Shown here piece after piece: positions 22,604-46,799 of a stretch of DNA of 64,000 nt. Below the pieces are notes generated by a model. It saw only the letters and a list, made by a program, of their open reading frames with translations. It made no database searches and was not told the origin of the DNA. Numbering within the stretch: position 1 is the stretch's first letter; every line of letters begins with the position of its first letter. The position numbers and the translations under genes are program-made. Origin of the DNA: Candidatus Glassbacteria bacterium (lineage in GTDB: Bacteria > Gemmatimonadota > CAZMKB01); contig JBHIFB010000001.1 of NCBI GenBank assembly GCA_046760905.1, positions 38,064 to 102,063 of the forward strand, in the 5' to 3' direction.

Positions 22604-23896
22604 TTATGTTTTCAGCTCTTTTTTCCTTGCCGCAGGGAATAGAATATTATTCAGGATCAACCGGTATCCCGGTGAATTCTTATGAACCTCAAGTCTTGTT
22701 GGAGGATCGCCTATCGCATGCTGCTTGTCCTCGGGATCATGGCCACCGAGATATGTGAAGGTTCCCCTGCCGGCGTTTCCATGCACATATTTCACCCACG
22801 GCTTACCCTCCTCGAATGCCATCACCGTGACGGCGGGGTTGAGGGTTTCCCTCGTGAAACTCGTTGTCAGGCCGTAGAAATCCTCTATATAGTTGACATG
22901 ATTCTGAGTGAGCATCGTCGGGACCGGATCGTATTTAGCCGAGAACTCGAAAAGCTTGAAGAAGCCCAGGGGCTTCCTCCCGGGTGTGTTGACGTGATGA
23001 CCGTCTATACTGGAGAAGGCATTGATCGATGCATCAGCCACGAGGGTGAAGTGACTGAATGCAAGGGTCTTTGAAAAATCAAGCTTTGATTGAGCATTCG
23101 GATCAATTGGCGTTCCGTCGACCTCCGCTGCTACAATGTCGACTCCCTGAGCGGCAAGGGCTATCTCGAAGGTCTCCGGAGCGGAGCACATCGCGAAGAG
23201 GAAGCCACCGTCGAGGACATACTGCTTTATCCTCACACTCACTGCCGCTTTCATATCTGCAACTGTGGCAAAGCCCAATTCGCTCGCCATGCGGGTGTTC
23301 ACCTCCACATCCTCCTTGAACCAGGCAGCCTGCCCGTAATGAATATAGAACCTGTTAAATTGCCCGGTGAAATCTTCGTGGTGAAGGTGAAGCCAGTCAT
23401 ATGAAGACAGTTTTCCCTGGAGGACTTCCCGGTCCCACACAGTCTCGTATGGAATATCTGCATAGGTGAGTGCCAGAGTAACTGCATCATCCCACGGCTC
23501 CCTGTTAGGCGGAGTGTAGATCGCTACAGAGGGTGCCTTCTCGAGGAGGATGATATCCATATTGTTCTCATCTATCACCCCGTTCATTTCCGCTTCAAAA
23601 GCGGTGGTCAACAGCTCGTAATATACGCCTCTGATCTTGGCCTCCTTCCTGAGAAGTTCCCTATCAAGAAGCAGAAATGACCCTCCCCTGTAGTTGAGGA
23701 GCCACTCCACATCCCAGCCCATCTCAAGGCTTTTATAAGCCAATCCATAGGCTTTGAGATGGTCCGTCTGGGTGAGGTCCATAGGTATGAGTATCTTCGC
23801 GCCTAGGCTAGCCGGCAGGAGCACAAGCATGGCTACAGTCGTTTTCACAAGGGGGGATTCGTAGATCCGGTTCTTCTTCCAACATCTCAATCCCAT
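22604..23896 (-). CDS. hypothetical secreted protein, last gene of a three-gene operon
   Basis: Signal peptide (MLVLLPASLGA). 430 aa with no recognised catalytic motif. Its start overlaps the stop of the TPR gene. Confidence 0.45.
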   Translation of the reverse strand: MGLRCWKKNRIYESPLVKTTVAMLVLLPASLGAKILIPMDLTQTDHLKAYGLAYKSLEMGWDVEWLLNYRGGSFLLLDRELLRKEAKIRGVYYELLTTAFEAEMNGVIDENNMDIILLEKAPSVAIYTPPNREPWDDAVTLALTYADIPYETVWDREVLQGKLSSYDWLHLHHEDFTGQFNRFYIHYGQAAWFKEDVEVNTRMASELGFATVADMKAAVSVRIKQYVLDGGFLFAMCSAPETFEIALAAQGVDIVAAEVDGTPIDPNAQSKLDFSKTLAFSHFTLVADASINAFSSIDGHHVNTPGRKPLGFFKLFEFSAKYDPVPTMLTQNHVNYIEDFYGLTTSFTRETLNPAVTVMAFEEGKPWVKYVHGNAGRGTFTYLGGHDPEDKQHAIGDPPTRLEVHKNSPGYRLILNNILFPAARKKELKT

Positions 23897-25710
23897 GGCC
23901 TATCCCCTATCTTCGCAAGAAGGTGCCTCGCTTCCTCGGTCTCGATCACTGCCCCGTATTCGAGTATCAACCTCTCGAACGTCTCCCTTGCAGCTTTCCA
24001 ATCACCGAGTAGTGAGTATTGCATCTTTCCCACCTCCATAAGTGCTCTTGCCGCCACATACTCTTGGTGTGCATGTTCGGACAGGTCTTCAAAGATGGCG
24101 AGGGCCTCGCTTTCATCACCCCAGCTTTTGAGTGAGGCCGCTAGAATCAGCATTATTTCGTCCTTGAGGATCTTATCCTTCGCCGATGCCACCGATTTGG
24201 CGTATGCATCCCTCGCTATGGTTTTCTCGGCGCGACGCTCGGCATACTTTGCCGTCCCGAGCAGTCTCAGAGCTTTGGCCTCCTCGCTTCCAAAGCGCTT
24301 ATCGAGCCTGAGTATTTCGAGGGCCTCGCTCGTTTCCTCGAAGGATGGGGCCGATTCTGCAAGATTCCTGTAGTATCGCATTGCATCTTCGAGGTTCCCT
24401 CTGTAGAAGTGTACGTTTCCAAGCTCGAAAATGATCTCCTCCCTTATCTTACCTTTTGCCTGGCTCTCCTCAAGAAGCAGTAGCTCCGTGACCGCACTCT
24501 CAAGGTCTCCGGCGGCGATCATCGCCCGAGACACTTTGAGGCTCAGCATTGCCGTGTGTTGGGGCGGTACGCCGATCTCGTCCAATTTCCTGTACCAGTT
24601 GAGAGCCTGGGAAGGCTCCTTTCGGAAGTATAGATACAGGTCACCGATTGATTCGTAACATTTTATTCTGTTTGCCTGCGACAGGTTCTCGGTAACCATG
24701 GATTCAAAAAGAAAAAGCGCCTCCTCACCACGACCCATCTCCTTCAGCTCGCTGGCGAGCTGGATCTTGACATCCGTCCTGGCGCTCGCTGAGAACCCTA
24801 TCGCCTCATCGAGTGCGCGCTCTGTGATTTCAAAAAGACCCTGCCTTACCGATAGACGTGCCAATCTTATAAGCTCTTTTAAACCCTCGTTGGGATCTCT
24901 CCCTTCACTACAGTTTGTAATTAGCGATAGTGCCCTCTCGTACTTACCACAGGCAATCTCGAGGTCGATTAGCAGTGGAAGAACCCAGCCACAAGGCTCC
25001 TTAGATTCGGCTTCCCTCACTAGCTTCAAAATCTGGCTGGTATCCCTGCTCGCCTTGCCGGCTTCCAGTAGCCGCCTCTGTACGTATGTGACGCTCTTCG
25101 GGTGCGTTTTCAAAAACTGCAGGAATTCCTCTGTCGATGAGGCATAATCGCCGGTTAAGAGGAGGAGTTCCGCCATCTCTCTCTGAAAGAGATCCTCCTT
25201 TTTCAAATTCCTTCTTCCCTGCCTCAACACACGGACCGCCTGCTCCCTGAGGCCGTTCGACCTGTACAGCGTGCTCAGGTTCCGGTACAGCTCAGTCATC
25301 TCAGGCCATCTTCTTAACGATTCTGTTCCAACCGCGAGACACTCCGCCACGTTTCCGGATTTATAGAGCGATTCTATGTACTGCTTGGCTACGAGCTGGT
25401 TTTCAGGATACTGTGAAAACCTTCCGCGGAGGATCTCCCTGTAGCGATCGAGCTGTCCGGCTCTCTTCGCTGTTCGAGAAAGGCCCCGCAGGGCCTGGGC
25501 AGCACAGGGATTCTCCTCCTCATACCTCATGTATAACTCGAAGGCACGCTCGTAATCCTTAGCTCTTTCATAATATAAGGCCCTATTGATGTCTGCCTGG
25601 GACTCACTCTCCTGCTCAAGGGAACCTGCGATAACAGAGGAGCTCGCGATAAGCAAGAGGACGATCCATCCAATGGAATCGCGATTCTGACGGCGAAAAT
25701 TCATTCCCAT
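23887..25710 (-). CDS. tetratricopeptide-repeat protein, secreted
   Basis: Signal peptide followed by many TPR-like helical repeats (AxxxYxxA patterns). Abuts the giant upstream gene (stop/start overlap). Confidence 0.7.
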   Translation of the reverse strand: MGMNFRRQNRDSIGWIVLLLIASSSVIAGSLEQESESQADINRALYYERAKDYERAFELYMRYEEENPCAAQALRGLSRTAKRAGQLDRYREILRGRFSQYPENQLVAKQYIESLYKSGNVAECLAVGTESLRRWPEMTELYRNLSTLYRSNGLREQAVRVLRQGRRNLKKEDLFQREMAELLLLTGDYASSTEEFLQFLKTHPKSVTYVQRRLLEAGKASRDTSQILKLVREAESKEPCGWVLPLLIDLEIACGKYERALSLITNCSEGRDPNEGLKELIRLARLSVRQGLFEITERALDEAIGFSASARTDVKIQLASELKEMGRGEEALFLFESMVTENLSQANRIKCYESIGDLYLYFRKEPSQALNWYRKLDEIGVPPQHTAMLSLKVSRAMIAAGDLESAVTELLLLEESQAKGKIREEIIFELGNVHFYRGNLEDAMRYYRNLAESAPSFEETSEALEILRLDKRFGSEEAKALRLLGTAKYAERRAEKTIARDAYAKSVASAKDKILKDEIMLILAASLKSWGDESEALAIFEDLSEHAHQEYVAARALMEVGKMQYSLLGDWKAARETFERLILEYGAVIETEEARHLLAKIGDRPWD

Positions 25711-34479: not shown

Positions 34480-35037
34480 CTACTCTTTGACCGCCTTCAG
34501 ATCGACAAGGGGGGCTCCTGCATCCACCACCTCGCCCTCTTTCACAAGTACCTTCCTGACGATGGAATCATAGGGGGCTCTGATCTCGTTTTCCATCTTC
34601 ATTGCTTCTACGATGACCAGACTAGTACCCTTCTTGACTTCATCACCCGCTTTGACCTTCACTTTTATCACGTTGCCCGGCATCGGAGAGGATAGCTTAT
34701 CACGTGCGGTATCTTGAGACAGCCCGGTCGCTTCCTCCGCTTCATCTATCATCTCGAAGAGGTAGTGTTCGCCTTCTATCGTAACACTCCTGCTGCTCCC
34801 GACTCTGTTTATCAAGGCGATAAATGATTTCCCCTCTATTATTATTGAGAGCTCGTGTTCGGATATCCAATGGTAGTCGACACGGCTTGACCTACCGTCG
34901 ATGGTAATGAACAGACCTTCTTTGCCCTCGCTTATGTCCAGATCGTACCTTTTACCATCGAGTCTGAAGGATGTAGTCACTCTCTTCCTCCACTGCTTTT
35001 CTCCGCACCCTCGGGAGAACTGCCCAGGATCCTCCAT
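34480..35037 (-). CDS. biotin carboxyl carrier (BT-BCCP) segment of an acyl-CoA carboxylase alpha subunit
   Basis: C-terminal biotinylation motif EAMKMENEI. The N-terminal 100 aa resemble the BT linker domain. It overlaps the biotin carboxylase ORF by 61 nt in another frame. Confidence 0.75.
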   Translation of the reverse strand: MEDPGQFSRGCGEKQWRKRVTTSFRLDGKRYDLDISEGKEGLFITIDGRSSRVDYHWISEHELSIIIEGKSFIALINRVGSSRSVTIEGEHYLFEMIDEAEEATGLSQDTARDKLSSPMPGNVIKVKVKAGDEVKKGTSLVIVEAMKMENEIRAPYDSIVRKVLVKEGEVVDAGAPLVDLKAVKE

Positions 35038-36539
35038 CCGTTAAATCTTTCCCACGGGCTCTGATAGACCGGGGGGTGTGATTCACCCCTTGCCTTTGAA
35101 CGTTCATCTCTTTTCTGATCGATCGCCGCTGCGATAAGGGCCTCTCTCAGATGCAACCTCCTGGCTTTCGTCTCCTTCCAGGAAGGAAGGAAACGCGGTA
35201 TTGTCTCGGTTGTAGTAAGGCCCTTGGCGAAATCGGGATCATCCATGAGATCGGTGAGAAAATCTATAGTCGTCTTTATCCCGAGCACTCTGTACTCGAG
35301 GAGTGCTCTCTTCATCCTCTTCCTGGCCGTCTCCCGGTCCTGCCCCCAAACGATCACCTTTGAGAGTATAGGGTCATAGTACATGGGAACATCACAGCCG
35401 CTATACATGCCTGAATCGACCCTCACCCCGATGCCTTCCGGTTCCCTGAGGAAGCCGACCTTTCCAAACGACGGCAGGAAGTCGTTTTCAGGATCTTCCG
35501 CGTAGATGCGACACTCGATAACATGCCCGTGGGGCGTTAGGTCCTCCTGACTCAGGTCGAGCGGGAGGCCTGCTGAAATCTTTATCTGCTCCTTCACAAG
35601 GTCAACACCCGCAATGAGCTCGGTAACCGGATGTTCGACCTGAAGCCTGGTGTTTACCTCAAGAAAATAGAAGCGTCCCTCTCCATCGACTAGAAACTCC
35701 ACCGTTCCAGCGTTTCTGTATCCGACGGCCCTGACCACATCGACCGCCGCCCTGGCCATCTCCCTCCGTTTTTCTTCATTCAATGCTGCAGAAGGCGATT
35801 CCTCAACGATCTTCTGGTGCCTGCGCTGAATAGAGCACTCCCTCTCAAAGAGGTGTACTATATTCCCGTAGTGATCGGCCAGAATCTGAAACTCGATGTG
35901 CCTCGGTTCCTGGATATACTTTTCCAGATATACGCTCGAGTCGCCGAACGCAAAATCAGCCTCCCTCATTGCACCTTCGAAAGCTTCTTTCAACGCCTCC
36001 CCATCCTGGATGACTCGCATCCCCTTCCCGCCCCCGCCGGAAGCCGCTTTTATCATGACCGGGAATCCTATCTTCTCCGCCTCCTCAAGCAGCGTGCTTG
36101 ATTTGACAGCCTCCCCCACCATGCCCGGAATGATGGGTATGCCGGCCTCAGTGACCTTCTCTCTCGATTTGAGTTTGTTCCCGAGGAATCGTATCTCCTC
36201 ATGGCCGGGTCCGATGAATGTGATGCCGGCATCGGTACACTTTTTCGCGAAATCCGGATTTTCTGCGAGGAATCCATATCCAGGGTGGATCGCCTCGACA
36301 CCTGAGGTCCTGGCTGCCCTGATGATGGCTGTATGGTCCAGGTAGCTCCTAGTCGGTTCGGGCGGGCCTATGCAGACCGCTTCATCAGCCATCTGGACAT
36401 GTAGCGCTTTCCTGTCGACCTCGGAATATATCGCAACGCTCCCTATGCCCATATCCCGAAGCGTTCTAATCAAACGGACTGCGATCTCGCCCCTGTTCGC
36501 TATGAGTATCTTACCGAACACCTTGCAAACCTCATTCAT
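34977..36539 (-). CDS. biotin carboxylase (acyl-CoA carboxylase alpha, BC domain)
   Basis: ILIANRGEIAVR and the ATP-grasp motifs. The SPWERFNGWR tail normally continues into the BT-BCCP domain. Confidence 0.9.
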   Translation of the reverse strand: MNEVCKVFGKILIANRGEIAVRLIRTLRDMGIGSVAIYSEVDRKALHVQMADEAVCIGPPEPTRSYLDHTAIIRAARTSGVEAIHPGYGFLAENPDFAKKCTDAGITFIGPGHEEIRFLGNKLKSREKVTEAGIPIIPGMVGEAVKSSTLLEEAEKIGFPVMIKAASGGGGKGMRVIQDGEALKEAFEGAMREADFAFGDSSVYLEKYIQEPRHIEFQILADHYGNIVHLFERECSIQRRHQKIVEESPSAALNEEKRREMARAAVDVVRAVGYRNAGTVEFLVDGEGRFYFLEVNTRLQVEHPVTELIAGVDLVKEQIKISAGLPLDLSQEDLTPHGHVIECRIYAEDPENDFLPSFGKVGFLREPEGIGVRVDSGMYSGCDVPMYYDPILSKVIVWGQDRETARKRMKRALLEYRVLGIKTTIDFLTDLMDDPDFAKGLTTTETIPRFLPSWKETKARRLHLREALIAAAIDQKRDERSKARGESHPPVYQSPWERFNGWRILGSSPEGAEKSSGGRE

Positions 36540-37329
36540 CGGACTGCCAGGAAGGCTTTCTCTTCTCGAGGTAGGCCCTGAGCCCTTCCTGACCCTCGGG
36601 CGACACCCTCATCTCGGCGATAAGCCTGGCGGTGTACTCCTTCGCAACCTCGAGAGAGCTGCCTGTTACGCTCTCGATGAGCTTTTTGCTCGCGGTCACC
36701 GCGCCCGGCGCGCCTTTTTCTATTCTTTCCACATACTCAGTGACGACCTCATCCAGCTCGTCGCCTGTCACGATACAGTTCACGAGTCCTATTTCATGCG
36801 CACGGGAAGTACTTATCTTCTCACCCGTAAGGAAAAGTTGCCTCGTCACACCCTCACCGACCTTCTTCAGCACGTATGGTGCAATGCAGGAGGGTACCAC
36901 GCCGATCCTAACCTCGCTGAAGGCAAAGAATGCATCCTCCACGGACACCGCTATGTCGCAGGCTGCAACGAAGCCGATCCCTCCCCCCATCGCGGGTCCA
37001 TTCACCATCGCGATAGTGGGAAGAGGGTGCGAGTACAGCTCATAGAGGCAGTGAGCGAGCTCCTCGGCTTCCCTGAGGTTCTCCTCCAGGCTCAGATCCA
37101 TGCTCTTCTTCATCCAGGAGATGTCTGCACCGGCACAGAAGCAGGTCCCTTCACCGGTGAGGATTATCACCCTGTAGTTTTTTTCACGACGAAGATTTGC
37201 CAGCGCGTCGCGGAGTTCCACTAGCATTTCGAGGTCGAAGGCGTTCCTGACCTCCTGCCTGGCGAAAGAGATCAATGCTGCCCTGCCGTGAGGCTTGATG
37301 GTTATCTTCCTGTATCCATCCTGCTTCAA
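36532..37329 (-). CDS. enoyl-CoA hydratase (methylglutaconyl-CoA hydratase-like, LiuC-type)
   Basis: Crotonase fold (ITGEGTCFCAGADI...). Start proposed at the TTG 4 nt after AGAGGAGG, which avoids overlap with the upstream carboxyltransferase; the longest ORF reaches 37407. Confidence 0.8.
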   Translation of the reverse strand: MKQDGYRKITIKPHGRAALISFARQEVRNAFDLEMLVELRDALANLRREKNYRVIILTGEGTCFCAGADISWMKKSMDLSLEENLREAEELAHCLYELYSHPLPTIAMVNGPAMGGGIGFVAACDIAVSVEDAFFAFSEVRIGVVPSCIAPYVLKKVGEGVTRQLFLTGEKISTSRAHEIGLVNCIVTGDELDEVVTEYVERIEKGAPGAVTASKKLIESVTGSSLEVAKEYTARLIAEMRVSPEGQEGLRAYLEKRKPSWQSDE

Positions 37330-37342
37330 GCAACCTCCTCTG

Positions 37343-38950
37343 CTACATACGGAACACGCCGTAGGCCTGATCCGGGATAGGTGCATTGAGCGACATGGAG
37401 ATTCCAAGCGCGAGAGCTTCCCTTGTCTTCAAAGGATCTATTATGCCATCATCCCAGATGCGAGCCGATGCGTAGTACGGGTTCCCCTCGTCCTCATACT
37501 TCTTCAGCGTCGGTGCTTTGAACTCCTCCTGCTCCTCAGGGGTCATGCTCTTTCCTTCCTTCCGGAGCTGCTCCAGTTTGACAGTCAGTAGCACGTTTGC
37601 CGCCTGTTCGCCTCCCATTACCGAGATCCTCGCATTGGGCCACATCCAGAGCAATCTCGCGCCGTAGGCACGGCCGCACATTCCGTAGTTACCAGCACCA
37701 TAAGATCCACCTATGATGAGTGTGAACTTCGGCACCCTGGCGTTCGCCACAGCATGAACCAGTTTCGCACCGTCTTTGGCGATGCCACCGTGCTCATACT
37801 GCTTGCCAACGATGAAGCCGGTTATGTTCTGGAGGAATATGATCGGGATTTTCCTTATCGTACACAGTTCAACGAAGTGTGCCCCTTTGAGGGCGCTCTC
37901 GCTGAACAGTACGCCGTTGTTGGCCAGTATTCCGACCGGGTAACCTTCTATGTAGGCGAAACCGCAAACGAGGGTTGTGCCATACAGCTCCTTGAATTCG
38001 TGGAATCTGCTGCCGTCAACCAAACGGGCGATTATCTCCCTCATGTCGAACTGCCGCCTCAGGTCCTTAGGTATGATGCCGTATATCTCTTCGGGATCGT
38101 AATATGGTTCTTCCGGTTCCCTCACATCGAGTCTACTTTTCTCTTCCTTCGGAACGTTCTCTATGATGTTCCTTGCCAGTTCAATGGCATGCTCATCATC
38201 GATTGCATAATGGTCACTCACTCCCGAAATTCTGCAGTGCACATCGGCGCCTCCCAACTCCTCGGCGGTCACATCAACGCCTGTCGCCGCCTTCACAAGA
38301 GGCGGACCACCGATATATATCGTCCCCTGTTGTTTAACGATGATCGTCTCGTCACTCATCGCAGGAACGTATGCACCTCCGGCTGTGCAGAAACCAAGCA
38401 CCACGCTGACCTGGGCGATGCCCATCGATGACATCACGGCCTGGTTGAAGAAAATGCGACCGAAGTGAGCCTTGTCCGGGAAAACACCCGCCTGAAGCGG
38501 CAAGAAGACACCGCCCGAATCGACGAGGTAGACGCACGGAAGGCGGTTCTCCATTGCTATCTCCTGAGCCCTGAGGTGCTTCTTTATAGTCATCGGGAAA
38601 TACGTTCCGCCTTTGACTGTCGCATCGTTTGCGACGATCATCACCTCACGCCCGTGAATCCTCCCTATCCCTGTCACTATGCCTGCCGAAGGTGCTTCGC
38701 CACCGTACATGCCATAGGCTGCGAATGGAGAGAGCTCAAGGAAAGGGCTTCTCTTATCGATGAGCAGGCTGATACATTCCCGCGCCGTCAGCTTCCCTCG
38801 TTCCTTGTGCTTCTTGTGTGCCTTGGAAGGTCCCCCTTTCTTGATCTTCTCATACCTTTTGCCCAGTTCCTCGACGAGGGCTGTCATCGATTCCTTGTTA
38901 TCCTTGAAGTCCTGGCTGGTTGTGTCAATTCTGGAATTGATCCTGTACAT
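37343..38950 (-). CDS. methylcrotonoyl-CoA carboxylase beta subunit-type carboxyltransferase
   Basis: 535-aa two-domain carboxyltransferase of MCCB/PCCB type ([12 protein letters not shown] ... [15 protein letters not shown]). Confidence 0.9.
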
Positions 38951-39130
38951 TTTCTTCCTTCCGGATCCTGTTTAAGAGACCAGTTTTTTCCCTTGAAGGA
39001 GAGAGCGGTTTCTGATGCGCGAAAGGTATCGCGAAGGCCCCTGGCCTGGAGAACATGTGAAAACAATGCATCGACCGGCATCCGCTCATGAATCGGTCGC
39101 AGGTGTCAGACGACATGAGAAGCGTGGAGC

Positions 39131-39523
39131 TCACTCCACCACTGCTTTGTGTCCATAACAGAGGATGCCTTCGTCCCCATCTTTCTGTATCATTCTAAAC
39201 TCGAGCTTCACAGGCATCCCGATCTTCAGCTCATCAGATTCTACATCGGCTATGCCTACTGTAAGCCTCACGCCCTCTTCAGTCTCGACTATCCCTACGG
39301 CGTAAGGAGTATCATCTCTGAACTGTGGGGGCGGTACGTGGATAACAGTGTAAGTCAGGAGCTTTCCTCTGTTTGAAAGATTCTTAGTCTCGAATTCTCT
39401 GTTTTTACACTCCGGGCAAATCGCTCTGGGCGGATAAGCAATAAATCCGCATTTTGTGCACAGCGCCGCCTGGAGCCTGTATCTCTGGGGAGTCTCCCTC
39501 CAGTATCTCTGAGCGGTACTCAT
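39131..39523 (-). CDS. DUF35 Zn-ribbon/OB-fold protein (partner of the thiolase/HMG-CoA synthase complex)
   Basis: [20 protein letters not shown] zinc ribbon followed by an OB fold. Overlaps the thiolase stop by 4 nt. Confidence 0.8.
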
Positions 39524-40677
39524 GCCACCTCCAGTATGTGAATGACACTGCTTCCTCCGGTTCCACCCATATTCTGCGCGAGCGCCACCTTCGCACCTTC
39601 AACTTGTCTTCCGTCGGCTTCTCCCCTAAGCTGCTTTACGAGTTCCACCAATTGAGCACACCCTGTCGCACCGACCGGGTGCCCCTTGGACTTGAGTCCC
39701 CCGCTCATGTTTACCGGTATTTTACCACCCATGTCCGTGAGGCCGGATTCCGCCGCCTGGCCTCCTTTGCCCTTCTCAACGAAACCTAGATCCTCTATGA
39801 CGCATATCTCGGCTATTGTGAAGCAGTCGTGCACCTCAGCAATATCTATTTCGCCTGGTATCTTCCCGGCCATCTTGTAAGCTTTCTCTGCCGCTTTCAC
39901 GGTGGAATCTATTACAGTGATGTCCTTCCTACTATGCAGCGCCATAGAATCCGTAGCATTCGTGGAGGCGATGATCTTCACAGCCGGCTTTCTCGACAGC
40001 TTCTTCGCCATATCGAGAGGACACATCAGAACCGCAGCAGCACCATCAGTGATCGGTGAGCAATGCAAGATCCTGAGTGGATCGGCTACCATCGTCGAAC
40101 TCATGACTCCCTCTAGGGTGACCTCAAAAGGATATTGACCAAGCGGATTCTTAGCACCATGCTTGTGATTTTTAACAGCGACATGGGCGAGTTGTTCCAG
40201 TGTCGTACCGTATCTTTCCATGTGAGCGCGTGCTATCATGGCGTAAAGACCGGGGAAGGTCGCCCCGTTGTATACCTCGTACTCCTGATCGGCTGCCGTT
40301 GCCAGTGCGAACGTGGCCCCGGCTCCCGATACATCGGTCATCTTCTCGACACCGGTCGCGAGCACGATGTCGCTCATACCCGATGCAACTTCGGTATACG
40401 CCATCTTCGCGCTGAGGCCCCCCGATGCACAGGCCGATTCGACTCTCGCGCAAGGCGACGGACACGCCCCGAGGTAATCGGCCAGCAGGGAGGACAGATG
40501 TTCCTGTTCAACAAAAAGTCCGCTGGACATCGATCCCACATAGATCGAATCAACGTGATCCACACCGGCATCATCTATCGCAAGGAGAGCCGCTTCGACC
40601 CAGATATCCCTGAGAGACTTATCCCACAGCTCACCCCACTTGTTCATCCCGACTCCTATTATCGCAACGTCCCTCAT
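39520..40677 (-). CDS. thiolase (acetyl-CoA C-acetyltransferase, archaeal/SCP-x-like type)
   Basis: N-terminus [13 protein letters not shown] is typical of DUF35-associated thiolases. Catalytic Cys region present. 385 aa. Confidence 0.85.
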
Positions 40678-40687
40678 TCGACTCCTC

Positions 40688-41734
40688 CTACCTCTTGAGC
40701 TTTATCTTTCCTCTGAATTTTGCATACCTGCCGTAATCGATGTACTTCTTCTGTCCATCGAGCATGGTTCTTGTTTTTACTGCGCGATCTCTCACCTCCA
40801 GGAGCCTGTCTGTCGCCCTGAATACGAAGGCATCGGATCCGGCACCGGAGCCATATGAGACCATGAGGATTGTGTGTCCCGGATCTGCGATGTCTAAGAC
40901 TGCCGTGAGGCCCATGGGTGATGAGCCGGAGTACGTATTCCCCAATACGGGGCAGAGCCAGCCCGGTTCTATTTTCTCTCTAGGAATGCCCAGAAGCTTC
41001 CCGGCCCGCATCGGGAACTTCCCGTTAGGCTGATGAAAGATGGCCCAGTCGATTTCATCGGCTGAGAGGCCGCTCCTTTTCAGGATCCCTTTCGCGGCTC
41101 CGAGCGTGTGCTTGAAGTATGCAGGCTCTCCTGTGAACCTGCCCGCGTGACTCGGATAGAACTGGTACTCCCTCCGCCAGAAATCCGGGGTGTCCGTCAT
41201 GAAGGAATAGGTGGCCTCGACCGTGGCGAGCGGCTTTTCCTTTCCGAATATGAATGCGGCCGCCCCTGCGGCGGTTGAATACTCGAGGGCATCGCCCGGT
41301 GCACCCTGAGATGTGTCGGCACCGACTGCGAGCCCGTATTCAATCGCACCGCTTTCAACGAGGCCAATCGCAACGAACATTCCCTCGGAACCCGCCTTGC
41401 AGGCAAACTCGAAATCTGCGCAATGGACGTCGGGTGTGGCGCCGATTGCCTCGGCGAGAACTGTTCCGCTCGGTTTCACCGCATACGGGTGTGATTCTGA
41501 ACCCACATAGACGGCCCCAATTTTCGAAGGATCTATTCCAGCCCGTGCGAGCGCGTTCCTGCTTGCTTCGACTGACATGGTGATCGTGTCCTGATCAGGA
41601 GCAGGTACGGATTTTTCAGTGAGCATCAAACCTTTTTTGTAACTCTCGGCATTCGCTCCCCATACCTTCGCTATCTCCTCCACTTTTATTCGATGCCGCG
41701 GTATGTAGGCACCGTATCCCACTATACCGACCAT
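40688..41734 (-). CDS. hydroxymethylglutaryl-CoA synthase (archaeal-type HMGCS)
   Basis: [26 protein letters not shown]...[12 protein letters not shown] closely follows archaeal HMGCS. Start placed at the conserved MVGIVGYG; the ORF extends to 41770. Confidence 0.85.
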
Positions 41735-41865
41735 AGAAGAACCTCCGTCTCTCAATTCCACTAAGAACATTTAAAAATCAGTAGTTAAATATAGCACCGG
41801 CCAGAGAAGCTGTCAATTTACATGCTCAACGTGGATTACTATACTTGCTTAGTGGTCGCGTTCGC

Positions 41866-42000
41866 AATTACGGTAACATATTATCACTCTGGGAAGCGAC
41901 CTTGCGCGAGCTTCCGAAAAGGGCCCTGGGGGGCGCGAGCCCCTGTGGAAGTGCTGCGTTTCCTTCCCAGAAACGTTACCGTAATTATGAAACGCAGCAC
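41866..42000. repeat. two interleaved perfect 12-bp inverted repeats in a divergent intergenic region
   Basis: AATTACGGTAAC (41866-41877) pairs with GTTACCGTAATT (41975-41986). GTGCTGCGTTTC (41951-41962) pairs with GAAACGCAGCAC (41989-42000). The order is A..B..A'..B'. Confidence 0.55.
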
Positions 42001-42030
42001 TTAGGAGAACATACCTGCAGGGAGTGAAGG

Positions 42031-43506
42031 ATGAAACAGATTTTCTATTTCACAATTATGATTTTCAATGTCATCTTTGTCCTTCCCGGTCAACTGACGG
42101 ATGGAAGGTTCCAGGGAGAAATTGGGAAACAGGAGCTGATAAGGCAACAGAATCCAGGGAGCAGAGCAATTATCAATTATGCGGGTAACAGGCCTCAATA
42201 CACTCCGGGTGCTCGTATTAAGGGTGGGACAGGTTCGAGTGGTATAGAGAAAGACGAATTTGGTGGATTGAAAATCTCAAAGTTTGAGGCGACGGGATTT
42301 TTCCGGCTAGAGAAATTAGATGGAAGGTGGTTTCTAGTGACACCTCAGGGCCATCCCTTTTATATAGTTGCTATAGATGGTGTAACACCATGGTATAAGG
42401 ACTACAAGAATACATCCTTTGAAACGAGATATAAGAAGAGATTCATATTATGGGCCAATATCGCCGTTGATAGAATCAGTTGGTTGGGGTTTAATACATT
42501 AGCGCATAAAACCGCCGAACAATGCATAGAGCAAATGGTAAACGGTAACGTCTGGAAAATCCCGTTCACAGTATTGGTGCCATTTGTGGAGAAGAAGACT
42601 TTTCCTGATGTTTTTTCTGAAGATTTTAGAAACCTAGTAGACCGTAAAGCGAAAGAATATTGTGAGCCATTGAAGGAGGAGTCCTATCTCGTGGGATATT
42701 TTCTCGGTAATGAACTCGATCTTAACCTTTACCGCCGTGGAGAAATAGACTGGCGAACCAGGTGGGTGAGGGCTCTTCTGAGTCAGGAACCTGACACACC
42801 GGCCAGAAGACAGTTTGCAGCTCTGCTTGAGAAAAAATTCCATACTATCGATGAACTCACCGAGGAGTTCGGTGAATTAAAACCGCGCTTTAGCTCCTTT
42901 GATGAGATAGGATTCAATCAAATATGGCCTGCTTTCAAGAAGGGGATCCCGCAAGCTGTTGAAATCGTGAAAGCCTACAATGCTCAAATAGCCGAAAGGT
43001 TCTACAAGCTGACCAGTGAAGCAATAAAAAGATATGATGGTAATCATCTCATCCTGGGATCGAGGTTTGCCAACGACGCAGAGATAGAAGTGTTGAACTC
43101 GACCAGAGATTATACCGATGTCGTCTCCTTTAACAAATATCCTTTAAAAGGACGGTTGCCGGTCTCTCTCTATGAGAAGATGTATGGCAATACAGAGAAG
43201 CCTCTATTTCACACAGAGTTTTCATATCTCGAAGAGGGCAGGGATGGGAATTATCCACCCGCACCGGACCAGGAGACCCGTGGGCTGTATTATACTAAGT
43301 TGGTGAGGGCAATGGTTGAAGTCGATGAAGTAGTGGGGTACGGTTGGCATGAGATGTTCGATCCAAAATATGGATCGAATTTCGGCCTTTTCGATGTACA
43401 TGATGAATTATACTATGATGCGGCGAAGCATATAATGGAGGCAAATCGACTTGTTGAGAGAAGATTCGCTGAGATAATTGCAAAGAAGATCAATGGGAGG
43501 AAGTGA
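42031..43506 (+). CDS. putative clan GH-A (TIM-barrel) glycoside hydrolase, secreted
   Basis: Signal peptide. Candidate acid/base motif LGNELD and nucleophile motif HTEFSY with appropriate spacing for GH-A enzymes. Confidence 0.45.
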   Translation: MKQIFYFTIMIFNVIFVLPGQLTDGRFQGEIGKQELIRQQNPGSRAIINYAGNRPQYTPGARIKGGTGSSGIEKDEFGGLKISKFEATGFFRLEKLDGRWFLVTPQGHPFYIVAIDGVTPWYKDYKNTSFETRYKKRFILWANIAVDRISWLGFNTLAHKTAEQCIEQMVNGNVWKIPFTVLVPFVEKKTFPDVFSEDFRNLVDRKAKEYCEPLKEESYLVGYFLGNELDLNLYRRGEIDWRTRWVRALLSQEPDTPARRQFAALLEKKFHTIDELTEEFGELKPRFSSFDEIGFNQIWPAFKKGIPQAVEIVKAYNAQIAERFYKLTSEAIKRYDGNHLILGSRFANDAEIEVLNSTRDYTDVVSFNKYPLKGRLPVSLYEKMYGNTEKPLFHTEFSYLEEGRDGNYPPAPDQETRGLYYTKLVRAMVEVDEVVGYGWHEMFDPKYGSNFGLFDVHDELYYDAAKHIMEANRLVERRFAEIIAKKINGRK

Positions 43507-43614
43507 TGTCACATGATGCCTGAGGAATACCTGAACCGGCTCAGTTGACAAGCCCTCTCGTTCATGCTATCATCATATCACCTTCCGCGACATCCTGTGA
43601 TAAGGAAGAACTTC

Positions 43615-45042
43615 ATGAAACCGTGCTTTTACATCATGCGGGCGACCAGGTGGATGCGGTTGTGTTCCATCCTGATAATGATTTCGCTCATTTATTGTGC
43701 CGGGCGGAAGAAGCCCCCAAACGTGGTCCTAATAATGGTCGATACCTTGAGAGCGGATCACCTGTCATGTTTGGGGTCGAAAGAGCTGCTAACACCAAAC
43801 ATTGATTCCATCGCAGAAGAGGGATTCCTGTTCACGAATGTCCACGCGACAGCACCAACCACACTCGCTTCGACGAGCTCACTCATGACATCTCTTTATC
43901 CAAGAATGCATGGAGCAGCATGCAATGGCCTCCAGCTTCACAGTTCTCTCCGTACTCTGCCTGAAGAATTAAGGAGCAAAGGTTATACAACCGCTGCGTT
44001 CGTTTCATCTTTTGCTCTCCACTCGAGCACGGGGATCGACCAGGGTTTTACCTACTTCGATGAAGCATTCGACAAGACATTTGGCAGTCCCGAAATTCAG
44101 AGAAGAGCAGGTGATGTCAATAGTGCAATCTACGGCTGGTTATCAAGGAGACCTTCTGAGCCCTTCTTCCTATTCGTGCACTACTTCGACCCGCATCCTC
44201 CGTATACACCACCCCCACTGTTCCGTGGGACTGGAAGCGAGGACACTGGAACAGAGATCACCGGATCATGGGAAGATCTGGTCGAGCTCAAATACTATCT
44301 GAGCGAGGGAGGAGAAGTGGACGCCCGGCTCGAGCGAATGCACCGTCTTTACATGGGAGAAGTGAAATATACAGACCATGAAATAGGAAAACTGATGGAC
44401 ATGCTCGAAGAGAGTGGCTTCCTTGAGAACTCACTTATAGTCTTCACGGCTGATCATGGAGAGACATTTTGGGAGCATATGGAGATGGGTGAATACCTGG
44501 ATCACGGATACATGGTGTATGAGACGACGACACACATTCCCCTTATCATAAAATGGTCGGGGAAGGTGCCAGAAGGTGTGAGTGATATGATGGCGAGCAA
44601 CATCGATATCGCCCCAACCATTATAGATCTGCTCGGATTTACCGTACCGAAAGGTTTTGCAGGAAGAAGCCTCGTGAGAGTAATGGAGGGACGGATGACA
44701 GAGGATGTGCCGGTATTTTCCGAAGCCACTAAGCCACACGGCGAAATAGAGTTGGAAACTGCTTTCAAGAACGACCGAAAAGCGAAATGTGTTTATATGG
44801 GCGGCTGGAAATTCATATGGGTACCGCACCTAAATGACCAAGAAGAACTGTACAACCTCACCCTGGACCGATCGGAGTTGAGAAACCTTCTAAAGGAGAG
44901 TGTGCACTCAGATAAGGTAAAGGCTATGAGATGGGCACTACGACAGTGGACACTGGAGGTTTCCAAAGTTGCGCTAGGTCGAAGCTATGAAATGGATGAA
45001 GAGACGCGGGAGAAACTCAAGACGCTCGGCTATGTTCAGTGA
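43615..45042 (+). CDS. sulfatase-like hydrolase/transferase (alkaline phosphatase superfamily), membrane-anchored
   Basis: VVLIMVDTLRADHLSCLG metal-binding N-terminal motif, one N-terminal transmembrane helix. No CxPxR formylglycine motif was seen. RBS AAGGA before the ATG at 43615. Confidence 0.7.
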   Translation: MKPCFYIMRATRWMRLCSILIMISLIYCAGRKKPPNVVLIMVDTLRADHLSCLGSKELLTPNIDSIAEEGFLFTNVHATAPTTLASTSSLMTSLYPRMHGAACNGLQLHSSLRTLPEELRSKGYTTAAFVSSFALHSSTGIDQGFTYFDEAFDKTFGSPEIQRRAGDVNSAIYGWLSRRPSEPFFLFVHYFDPHPPYTPPPLFRGTGSEDTGTEITGSWEDLVELKYYLSEGGEVDARLERMHRLYMGEVKYTDHEIGKLMDMLEESGFLENSLIVFTADHGETFWEHMEMGEYLDHGYMVYETTTHIPLIIKWSGKVPEGVSDMMASNIDIAPTIIDLLGFTVPKGFAGRSLVRVMEGRMTEDVPVFSEATKPHGEIELETAFKNDRKAKCVYMGGWKFIWVPHLNDQEELYNLTLDRSELRNLLKESVHSDKVKAMRWALRQWTLEVSKVALGRSYEMDEETREKLKTLGYVQ

Positions 45043-45259
45043 GGCATTGATAAATACGTTGAGAATAGTGATGCAGTGACCTCCCTAATAGGAATCTCAG
45101 GTGAACTCATACACACCGCTCGAGTAGTAGAAGAAATCCGTATAAACCTCTTCTGATCTGCCCCCCCGGATGGACCTGTGTGTCCTGTAAGGGAAATTCA
45201 ACCGGTGGGCTCTGCCTTTGAAGGCTGTCCTTGAGGGAGAGTGGTAGGAATTCAGCAGT

Positions 45260-45309
45260 GAAAATTGAGTTGTCATTCGACAGGCAACTTTTCTATTATA
45301 TTTTTTAAG
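45260..45309. terminator. imperfect hairpin plus T-tract between convergent genes (candidate bidirectional terminator)
   Basis: GAAAATTGAGTTGTC...GACAGGCAACTTTTC followed by TTTTCTATTATATTTTTT. It overlaps the 3' end of the minus-strand gene. Confidence 0.25.
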
Positions 45310-46799
45310 ATCGATTCATCTATTCGTACCATACGGTATATTCCGCCACGTTTCGGCTTCTCATCAATCGATTCGGGTTTCTTGAAGTCGGGATTGTAGA
45401 AACTCCACACAACCTGTCCATCAGTCGTTACTTCGAATACACGACCTTTGTTTGTTTCTGTAATCAATACGTTCCCATTTCCTAATTTCTGGCAGCCTCC
45501 TCTGGATTTCGAGAAAAAGGAGTTCGATGGATTCCCTTTATATGTCCAAACAATGCTCTTTTGCTCCGGGTCCACCTCGACGATTCGAGAAAAGCGTCTT
45601 TCTGCGCCATTGTCAAAGACAATGATATTTCCGTTTGGAAGAACAGAGGGTTGATGAGGTTTGTCAAGATCCTTCATTCCCCAACTCCATACAACCTCTT
45701 CTATATCGGGATCGATTACCGCTATTAGATTCAGTTCCCTGATGCATATTAGCATATCCCCCTGCTTCCAAAACCCTTTCCGGGCTGTTTCAATGACTTC
45801 TATTGTGTTCGAATGAAGAACATCTGCCGGGCTCAAATGTAATATTGCAATCTTGATCGCATCATCCTCTCTGGAATTACCGCTGACTATTTCCCTGTAC
45901 AGTTTTTTGTGCAGTTTAAACAGCTTCCTCAATTTTTGTTTCCGCCCTTTTCTCAACCTGCCCTTAACGAATGTCAACATGTTCCTCAGGGATTTAATAA
46001 GCGATTTTTCCGGCTTCTCTTCTTGTAGATCTACATCATTCTCTGGAAAGTTTTTTTGGATGATTTTCCACAGTTCTCTTTCTAATTCTTCGTTCTTTTT
46101 CAAAACTTCAATAATTGATATGCGACGTTTTACTTTACCATCCTGCGATAGGATTACAATATGATTATCCAACACCTGAAGCTTTCGACCGGAATGGTTA
46201 ACAGTCACAGGCACATCGACTATCGTGTATATATCGCCATTTTCCGAGATAGAAATATCGTGATGAGCGGATATTTCGGCTTTCCATTTTACATTCGAAT
46301 ACCAATCCAATTTAAGCAGCATGTGGTGGGAGCCGATCACGAACAAATTGCCATTCTTATCCATCTCGATATGATTCCAGCCCTCGTAATGTCGTGGAGT
46401 CGCCTTGTCGAAACGTTCTATAACTTTCTGCTTGGCCGATCCCGCTTCATCTGAAGACCAGGTGTGGACAACCCGACCATCCATTGTTATCAAATGCGCT
46501 TCTGTTCGTGCCCTTGAATTGTAGAGGTTGAGGCCCTGATAAGATAATTCAGGGATATATTCGGTGACACCGGCACTTCCTGAATCCTTTTCGTCGACCG
46601 GGACCCAGTTGACATATCCAAGGTTTTCTAGCTCCTCAAGCTGATCCTCCGATAAACCGCTCTTTCTTTCAACCGCTGTGTCTTTCTTCTTTGTAATAGA
46701 TTCCTGCTTCTCACCGCAGGCCGCTGACAAGAGAGAGAATATTATGAGATTGGCGAGAACCAACCATTTACTTATGCCCGAAGAACTTATTTCTTCCAC
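45273..46799 (-). CDS. secreted/lipoprotein beta-propeller protein, arylsulfotransferase (ASST)-like
   Basis: Lipoprotein-type signal (LLSAAC). Repeated propeller-like blades (NGNLFVIGSHHMLLKLD, DHIVILSQDGKV). The family assignment is tentative. Confidence 0.4.
   Translation of the reverse strand: MEEISSSGISKWLVLANLIIFSLLSAACGEKQESITKKKDTAVERKSGLSEDQLEELENLGYVNWVPVDEKDSGSAGVTEYIPELSYQGLNLYNSRARTEAHLITMDGRVVHTWSSDEAGSAKQKVIERFDKATPRHYEGWNHIEMDKNGNLFVIGSHHMLLKLDWYSNVKWKAEISAHHDISISENGDIYTIVDVPVTVNHSGRKLQVLDNHIVILSQDGKVKRRISIIEVLKKNEELERELWKIIQKNFPENDVDLQEEKPEKSLIKSLRNMLTFVKGRLRKGRKQKLRKLFKLHKKLYREIVSGNSREDDAIKIAILHLSPADVLHSNTIEVIETARKGFWKQGDMLICIRELNLIAVIDPDIEEVVWSWGMKDLDKPHQPSVLPNGNIIVFDNGAERRFSRIVEVDPEQKSIVWTYKGNPSNSFFSKSRGGCQKLGNGNVLITETNKGRVFEVTTDGQVVWSFYNPDFKKPESIDEKPKRGGIYRMVRIDESILKNIIEKLPVE

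Follow-up and report, generated by a model that had tools for sequence, protein, structure and literature searches.

REPINs are doublets of REP units, each about 20-25 nt long, that form hairpins and are mobilised by RAYT transposases. MITEs are small intergenic elements with terminal inverted repeats (TIRs), direct repeats that fade with age, and transcripts that adopt stable stem-loops (PMC10969869; PMC2229807; PMC2649163). Those with which we compare the present locus, the Correia repeat-enclosed elements of Neisseria, ERIC, RUP and QMITE2 of Coxiella, are long hairpins that are co-transcribed with their neighbours (PMC2229807, PMC2649163, PMC10969869), and passive effects on the mRNA, through its stability and its processing, have been described for Correia elements and for other bacterial MITEs (PMC2229807, PMC2649163, PMC10969869).

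The locus described here lies in a 64-kb window (the whole stretch of DNA that was analysed) from a Candidatus Glassbacteria MAG, upstream of a gene that starts at 42031 and encodes a protein identical to NCBI MFQ6102728.1. Between the predicted promoter and the RBS of this gene is a palindrome of 160 bp, and the best explanation that we can offer for it, one to which we give an even chance, is that it is a MITE/REPIN-like dispersed or mobile palindromic repeat. Its position in the 5' UTR would then probably reflect co-option of such a repeat.

The original prediction had drawn attention to two interleaved perfect 12-bp inverted repeats at this locus, with arms 97 and 26 nt apart and in the order A, B, A', B', and had judged two such pairs so close together to be unlikely by chance. 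With the exception of one length, all of this stood. A (AATTACGGTAAC) and its complement A' (GTTACCGTAATT) were confirmed as a perfect 12-nt pair with 97 nt between the arms (Table 1), the spacer of B/B' is indeed 26 nt, and the order of the arms along the window was correctly given, but the GTGCTGCGTTTC/GAAACGCAGCAC 12-mers extend to a perfect pair of 14 nt, 100% complementary. A scan of the whole 64 kb that admitted perfect inverted repeats from 12 nt upwards and spacers up to 130 nt returned A/A' and B/B' alone, and the same scan gave a mean of 0.9 per window in second-order Markov simulations; two perfect pairs within 140 nt are thus far from chance. Each of the 12-mers occurs in the window at its own sites and, with one mismatch, at one unrelated site. 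A looser scan (at least 18 nt, within 250 nt) found a sole inverted repeat in the window, a 30-nt pair at the element. This imperfect outer pair had not been part of the original prediction, and neither had a nested perfect pair, TCTGGGAAG/CTTCCCAGA, which we refer to as P2.

Alignment of the left half of the region with the reverse complement of the right half was continuous from 41847 to 42005 and scored 46, against 17 +/- 3.5 for shuffles. The whole structure is therefore one imperfect palindrome of ~160 bp that can form a hairpin, and A/A' and B/B' are its best-kept parts. The palindrome is built from two inverted copies of a unit that contains a hairpin, set around an apical hairpin rich in GC, and along each arm the blocks run B-type, A, P2, B'-type. 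Perfect complementarity of the B-type and B'-type blocks persists in the right arm, where they constitute B:B', and has decayed in the left arm. The interleaving A, B, A', B' would follow from this build, as either arm of such a palindrome is a hairpin in its own right.

Conservation between the arms is uneven, A and P2 matching at 21/21 positions and the outer 16-18 nt at only ~60%. Over 30 nt the arms are 73% complementary without gaps, and with two 1-nt gaps the figure rises to ~25/31 positions (about 81%). P2 is present in the MFE fold of both strands, and GCGCGAGC of the apical hairpin recurs at 41904-41911. The GC content is 54% for the element and 60% for its interior, compared with 50% for the window, and the element is thus not AT-rich. 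It is also non-coding: no Pfam-bearing ORF overlaps it, and the translations of its three open frames, searched in concatenated form with spurious ORF calls on other copies in view, match nothing among 5.8 billion proteins, a search of low sensitivity.

Table 1. Coordinates in the 64-kb window of the palindrome and its parts, of the neighbouring expression signals and of the contig ends in three sequencing runs.
Feature	Positions	Strand	Remarks
HMGCS operon promoter, TTGACA-17-TATATT with upstream TG	41788-41816	-	11/12 consensus positions; outside the element
Sigma-70-like promoter, TTTACA-17-TATACT	41817-41845	+	10/12 consensus positions; -10 at 41840-41845; consensus match only
Whole element	41845-42004 (contig-break rule); 41848-42004 (inverted repeats)		160-bp non-coding imperfect palindrome
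Left TIR-like arm, CTTAGTGGTCGCGTTCGCAATTACGGTAAC	41848-41877		includes A
A arm, AATTACGGTAAC	41866-41877		complement of A'
P2 5' strand, TCTGGGAAG	41888-41896		perfect 9-nt pairing with CTTCCCAGA
Apical GC-rich hairpin, GGGGGC-GCGA-GCCCCU	41929-41944		GNRA-type loop GCGA at 41935-41938; in MFE folds
B arm, AAGTGCTGCGTTTC	41949-41962		5' strand of local 14-bp hairpin within the right arm
P2 3' strand, CTTCCCAGA	41963-41971		partner of TCTGGGAAG
Right TIR-like arm, GTTACCGTAATTATGAAACGCAGCACTTAG	41975-42004		includes A' and B'
A' arm, GTTACCGTAATT	41975-41986		complement of A
B' arm, GAAACGCAGCACTT	41989-42002		in the rod, imperfect pairing with 41849-41864, not with B
Shine-Dalgarno GGGAG (42020-42024) and ATG (42031-42033)	42020-42033	+	42031 gene; outside A:A' and B:B'
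Contig ends, SRR29324585	left contig end 41874; right contig start 41975
Contig ends, SRR29324586	left contig end 41874; right contig start 41949
Contig ends, SRR29324583	left contig end 41855; right contig start 42003

The 42031 gene encodes a secreted glycosidase-like protein of 491 aa without a Pfam domain, the relatives of which are labelled agarase or match GH42 weakly, and it is followed by a sulfatase gene. On the left a minus-strand operon encodes HMGCS-like, thiolase, DUF35 (a ChsH2-like OB-fold/zinc-ribbon protein), carboxyltransferase, enoyl-CoA hydratase and biotin carboxylase proteins. The HMGCS-like gene starts at 41734, not at 41770; its 348-aa product matches exactly in an independent assembly, and its closest relative (L008, 84% identity) starts at the same residue. 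With this start the intergenic region, put at 260 nt in the original prediction, measures 296 nt. Elsewhere in the window Rfam matched two tRNAs. Genes for a transposase, integrase, invertase, RAYT or recombinase, or for an adjacent transcription factor, were not found in the 64 kb.

Five promoter-like sites were found against 0.7 expected in shuffles, among them a predicted plus-strand promoter that stands back to back with the minus-strand HMGCS promoter. The TSS predicted from the former, near 41852, falls at the left end of the palindrome. With this predicted promoter just upstream, transcription would make the element a leader of the 42031 mRNA, in which it would supply the first ~150 nt of the 5' UTR.

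The evidence that told most about the palindrome came from Logan assemblies (k=31; PMC12424806), made independently, of three sequencing runs. All three runs carry sequence nearly identical to the window (99.9%), and no contig from any of them spans the element. In a simulation of a two-copy repeat, a unitig from unique sequence entered the repeat by exactly k-1 = 30 nt, and the left end at 41874 and the right start at 41975 lie at exactly this depth inward of 41845 and 42004, respectively. The ends that follow from this break rule differ from those of the inverted repeat by no more than 3 nt at the left boundary and by 0 nt at the right one. The right contig of SRR29324586 starts exactly 30 nt to the left of a SNP private to that run, 41979 C>T. 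Exact k-mer break positions can in this way expose the boundaries of a repeat without the rest of the genome.

Breaks of this kind are expected if the samples contain other sequences that have the same element interior with different flanks. Alternatively, a branch directly past the contig ends may represent variant interiors at one and the same locus. SRR29324583 departs from the 30-nt rule and, read the other way, implies an allele in which 41856-42002 is absent or replaced. Under either reading of the graphs the population would be multiple or polymorphic at the element, which is easier to reconcile with a repeat that is mobile or unstable than with a regulatory leader that is fixed.

Among the readings put forward originally, that of a MITE came closest, although the ~120 bp with A/A' as termini that it specified gave way to ~160 bp, with A/A' internal to 30-nt TIRs. 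At 160 bp and without coding capacity, the element is within the size range of MITEs (about 50-500 bp), and its 30-nt arms are terminal inverted repeats. Both ends carry CTTAG (or TTAG, or TTA), the left at 41848-41852 and the right at 42000-42004; these sites are part of the near-palindromic CTNAG termini, and TSD and TIR are therefore indistinguishable. The allele implied by SRR29324583, lacking 41856-42002, would carry no TSD. As to copy number, the k=31 contigs that stop 30 nt inside both ends (two runs) suggest that other copies, or alleles that lack the element, exist in the community; direct searches returned no second copy. No cognate IS was found: the 64 kb encode no transposase, and plasmid and phage collections yielded no similar DNA. 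Uneven conservation of the arms together with a perfect B:B' is the pattern that would be expected of selection on pairing, and this would count against a MITE.

If the palindrome is such a repeat, its consequences for the 42031 gene would be passive. Transcribed at the 5' end of the mRNA, it would fold during transcription to give a rod hairpin of about -65 kcal/mol, and this 5'-terminal stem-loop might alter mRNA stability or processing, or serve as a target for a double-strand-specific RNase; ligand sensing by the element would not be involved. A MITE-like origin would offer an initial view of small non-autonomous repeats among Glassbacteria, which are uncultured, and a concrete case of an element that supplies the whole 5' leader of a polysaccharide-degradation gene.

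Related loci and sequence collections were searched for the element. It was absent upstream of five homologues of the 42031 protein (62, 58, 56, 45 and 43% identity), which are in other contexts, and, by blastn-short, upstream of HMGCS in 80 related MAGs, including that of the 84% relative; the orthologous intergenic regions, to which the original prediction had looked for conservation, thus gave none among 5 + 80 loci. A single-sequence covariance model run over 737 kb of related loci from 90 sources recovered only the window and trivial palindromes. Further copies, the other test that had been suggested, were found neither within the 64-kb window nor in GTDB species representatives (exact A..A' pattern), JGI metagenomes, plasmids, phages or viral contigs. 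The B..B' pattern had three matches in the JGI metagenomes, all of them long perfect palindromes on unrelated contigs. One JGI match (L089), on a eukaryote-like contig with microsatellites, has 20 nt in common with the right arm and carries degenerate copies of a related motif; this similarity is probably fortuitous.

Given that the element would be transcribed, it is reasonable to ask whether it acts as RNA. We consider it unlikely, on balance, that it is an orphan two-state leader of the glycosidase-sulfatase operon, in which the A:A'+P2 rod would compete with B:B' and a ligand, a protein or the ribosome would tip the balance, with effects on mRNA stability or translation. A good predicted promoter lies directly upstream and places the whole element in the 5' UTR, the plus strand folds strongly (-72.9 kcal/mol, z -3.4), the apical hairpin has a GNRA (GCGA) loop, and a mini-ORF, MKRST-stop, overlies B'. 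Two perfect and mutually exclusive helices have, moreover, been kept while neighbouring segments of the palindrome diverged. The sole population SNP, 41979 C>T, preserves A:A' as a G-U pair on the plus strand at a loss of 2.6 kcal/mol, compared with 6.7 on the minus strand, although this single SNP is the extent of the variation evidence. It is also relevant that MITE hairpins could evolve into regulators of this kind (PMC10969869).

Folding nevertheless argued against a working switch. From the predicted start, the MFE structure is the rod, with A:A' and P2, at -69.1 kcal/mol, and the best fold forced to hold B:B' reaches -64.0 kcal/mol, 5.1 worse; A:A' has a predicted pair probability of 0.9995, and B:B' one of 4e-4. 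The rod is, in addition, predicted to form co-transcriptionally once A' emerges, ahead of the synthesis of B'. The topology had originally been described as pseudoknot-type or mutually exclusive, and of these the exclusive pairing holds. A simultaneous pseudoknot was rejected on both geometry and energy: B directly adjoins the P2 3' strand, B' begins 2 nt past A', and a closing B:B' pair would therefore bridge the entire stacked A:A'+P2. The opposite strand folds equally well (-72.0 kcal/mol, z -4.1), with G-U pairs near equal on the two strands (5/54 vs 6/55), and such symmetry would be expected as the typical mark of a DNA-level palindrome, not of an RNA selected on one strand.

No evident output for a switch was found either. 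The element has no intrinsic terminator-like site, and neither the Shine-Dalgarno sequence nor the AUG is occluded, both being outside A:A' and B:B' in all folds; switching would therefore have no evident readout. Rfam 15 gave no match to the element on either strand, at gathering thresholds or at E<=10, and no homologous structure was found upstream of relatives or, with the covariance model, in the 737 kb, so that the Rfam and folding comparison proposed at the outset came out negative. The suggestion of a structured leader or switch consequently survives in the trivial sense of a predicted 5' UTR position, with Rfam, conservation, terminator and occlusion of the Shine-Dalgarno sequence all against it. 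A more specific version, in which this would be an undescribed two-state Glassbacteria leader RNA controlling the secreted glycosidase/sulfatase operon, possibly a domesticated palindromic repeat with both helices kept by selection for switching, strikes us as very unlikely. Were it a conserved switch, for which shape alone speaks here, sulfated-glycan utilisation would gain a new regulatory RNA.

A palindrome of this size could also be the product of an inverted duplication specific to this locus, made by a replication template switch, in which case it would be unstable, non-mobile and functionless, and heterogeneous in the population as long palindromes rearrange. It is a single copy in all of the data searched, its perfect Watson-Crick blocks suggest a recent origin, and the assembly graphs branch inside it in 3/3 runs, a result that variant interiors at one locus could give as well. 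We nonetheless hold such a history to be distinctly unlikely, given that the contigs break exactly k-1 nt inside the ends in two runs and not at the positions of an inversion or a microhomology deletion. Deletion by microhomology or slippage, considered as the cause of the breaks, was rejected, as it predicted 42000 where 42003 was observed and the junctions are without microhomology. The uneven divergence of the arms also sits poorly with a very recent duplication.

It is highly improbable that A and A' are sites for proteins acting on DNA, whether operators (TTACNGTAA-type) looped by a regulator of the divergent promoters or recombination sites that bound an invertible segment. There is within each A site a TTAC-N-GTAA motif, a 4-1-4 palindrome, the A and A' centres are 109 bp apart (about 10.4 helical turns), and the sites are just downstream of the plus-strand promoter. 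Against operators, however, the 12/12 match is inverted and extends beyond the 9-bp palindrome, and similarity carries on through P2 and the outer arms; what is repeated is therefore the whole arm, not an operator. The original prediction had assigned such operators to the acyl-CoA operon, but the closest HMGCS relative keeps the TTGACA-17-TATATT promoter at the same distance, and a GGAGG RBS, without the element or its A/A' sites. The control region of that operon is therefore 41735-41816, outside the element, and with no regulator gene adjacent the assignment could not be maintained.

In favour of an invertible segment, inversion between A and A' would put the start of a right contig precisely at the inner border of A', and in one run this is where it is found. 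Such inversion, however, predicts a left break at 41877, where 41874 was observed twice, and leaves the start at 41949 unexplained, and it was rejected as the cause of the breaks. Both predicted promoters are outside the repeats, and hence outside the would-be invertible segment, and no regulator, invertase, integrase or other recombinase gene is in the window; the inverton was rejected on these grounds together. Also rejected were an integron attC site (CGGTAAC/GTTACCG match only the AAC/GTT of RYYYAAC...GTTRRRY, with no integrase or cassette array in the window) and a retron ncRNA, a dif/Xer site, a BglG-type RAT/terminator and a LexA-type box (TTAC-N3-GTAA), the core motifs, spacing or partner genes of which are absent.

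Set beside known systems, the element has some of the outward features of riboswitch and attenuator platforms, namely a predicted place in a 5' UTR, two strong helices barred from coexisting and a GNRA-capped hairpin. In contrast to these platforms, it shows no aptamer conservation (in Rfam or among homologues) and neither a terminator nor a helix that sequesters the Shine-Dalgarno sequence, its alternative fold is predicted to be essentially unpopulated, and its opposite strand is equally good.

The likeness to REPINs is one of architecture: two inverted hairpin units with a short spacer form a long hairpin as well as arm hairpins, by the same interleaving logic. The units, however, are about 55-65 nt and not about 20-25, they carry no conserved GTAG-type tetranucleotide, and the window has no RAYT gene.

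With Correia elements, ERIC, RUP and QMITE2 there is no sequence in common, and the right arm adds a perfect hairpin, B:B', that these lack. The element differs from bacterial MITEs in general in that no second copy, cognate IS or unambiguous TSD was found for it, and in not being AT-rich. What it does share with them is a length of about 100-200 bp, a non-coding and intergenic character, TIRs of 23-30 bp, an imperfect palindrome that runs its whole length, a very stable predicted stem-loop transcript, and a position between promoter and gene that would make it part of a 5' UTR.

All of the Logan k=31 contigs of near-identical sequence from three runs (L091/L096, L095, L097 and L001-L003; SRR29324583/85/86) terminate within the element, the approximately 160-bp non-coding imperfect palindrome upstream of the 42031 gene, at window positions 41855-42003. 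The contig ends at 41874/41975 and 41874/41949 agree with the k-1 rule if a repeat occupies 41845-42004, whereas those of SRR29324583 at 41855/42003 disagree with it, and would instead imply an allele that lacks 41856-42002.

A partial likeness to the element was found in L089 (JGI Ga0115006_10075787), a metagenome contig recovered in the B..B' pattern scan, which holds a perfect palindrome of 72 nt at positions 2496-2567. This palindrome has the 20-mer AATTATGAAACGCAGCACTT in common with the right arm of the element, and three degenerate copies of GCGTTTCAnnnTTnCACGCGGC also lie on the contig. The similarity is greater than the search pattern demanded. The contig itself is eukaryote-like and contains both microsatellites of the (CA)n type and tandem repeats of 10 nt.

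Over the whole 160 nt of the element, frames +1, +2 and -1, half of the six, contain no stop codon, and no protein relatives of these three were found. The five-codon mini-ORF on the B' arm (41989-42002, the 3' strand of the 14-nt B:B' pair) has no obvious Shine-Dalgarno sequence. Independent of the palindrome, a small hairpin of about -4.6 kcal/mol is predicted at 42010-42033, in which CAU (42010-42012) would pair with the AUG start codon of the 42031 gene, together with part of its Shine-Dalgarno region.

Features within and outside the element (window positions)
Feature	Position	Strand	Remarks
491-aa secreted protein	from 42031	plus	no Pfam domain; relatives annotated agarase, weak GH42
Sulfatase	43564-45042		
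Arylsulfotransferase-like gene	45273-46799	minus	convergent
Mini-ORF, five codons	41987-42004		ATG AAA CGC AGC ACT TAG (MKRST*); exactly on B' arm
ORF, 1136 aa	25710-29120	minus	large; no Pfam match
ORF, 430 aa	22604-23896	minus	large; no Pfam match

A sulfated-glycan cluster, made up of the genes for the 491-aa secreted protein, the sulfatase and the arylsulfotransferase-like product, is present at 42031-46799. The family of its 491-aa protein comprises 97 relatives, the majority of the matches having no Pfam domain and a few a weak GH42 (PF02449), and looks like an undescribed glycoside-hydrolase-like family. Elsewhere in the window, a TPR-repeat protein (23887-25710) adjoins the 1136-aa and 430-aa ORFs.

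Left of the element, on the minus strand, we place the start of the HMGCS-like ORF at the ATG at 41734 rather than the listed 41770, because an independent assembly holds an exact match to the resulting 348-aa product, and because the start, the GGAGG ribosome-binding site and a TTGACA-17-TATATT promoter are common to the window and L008, the closest relative. The minus-strand operon (34977-41734) fuses an archaeal-type HMGCS/thiolase/DUF35 trio with a carboxyltransferase, an enoyl-CoA hydratase and a biotin carboxylase, which suggests leucine/isovalerate or mevalonate-linked metabolism; in this combination of genes it bears a likeness to methylcrotonyl-CoA carboxylase.
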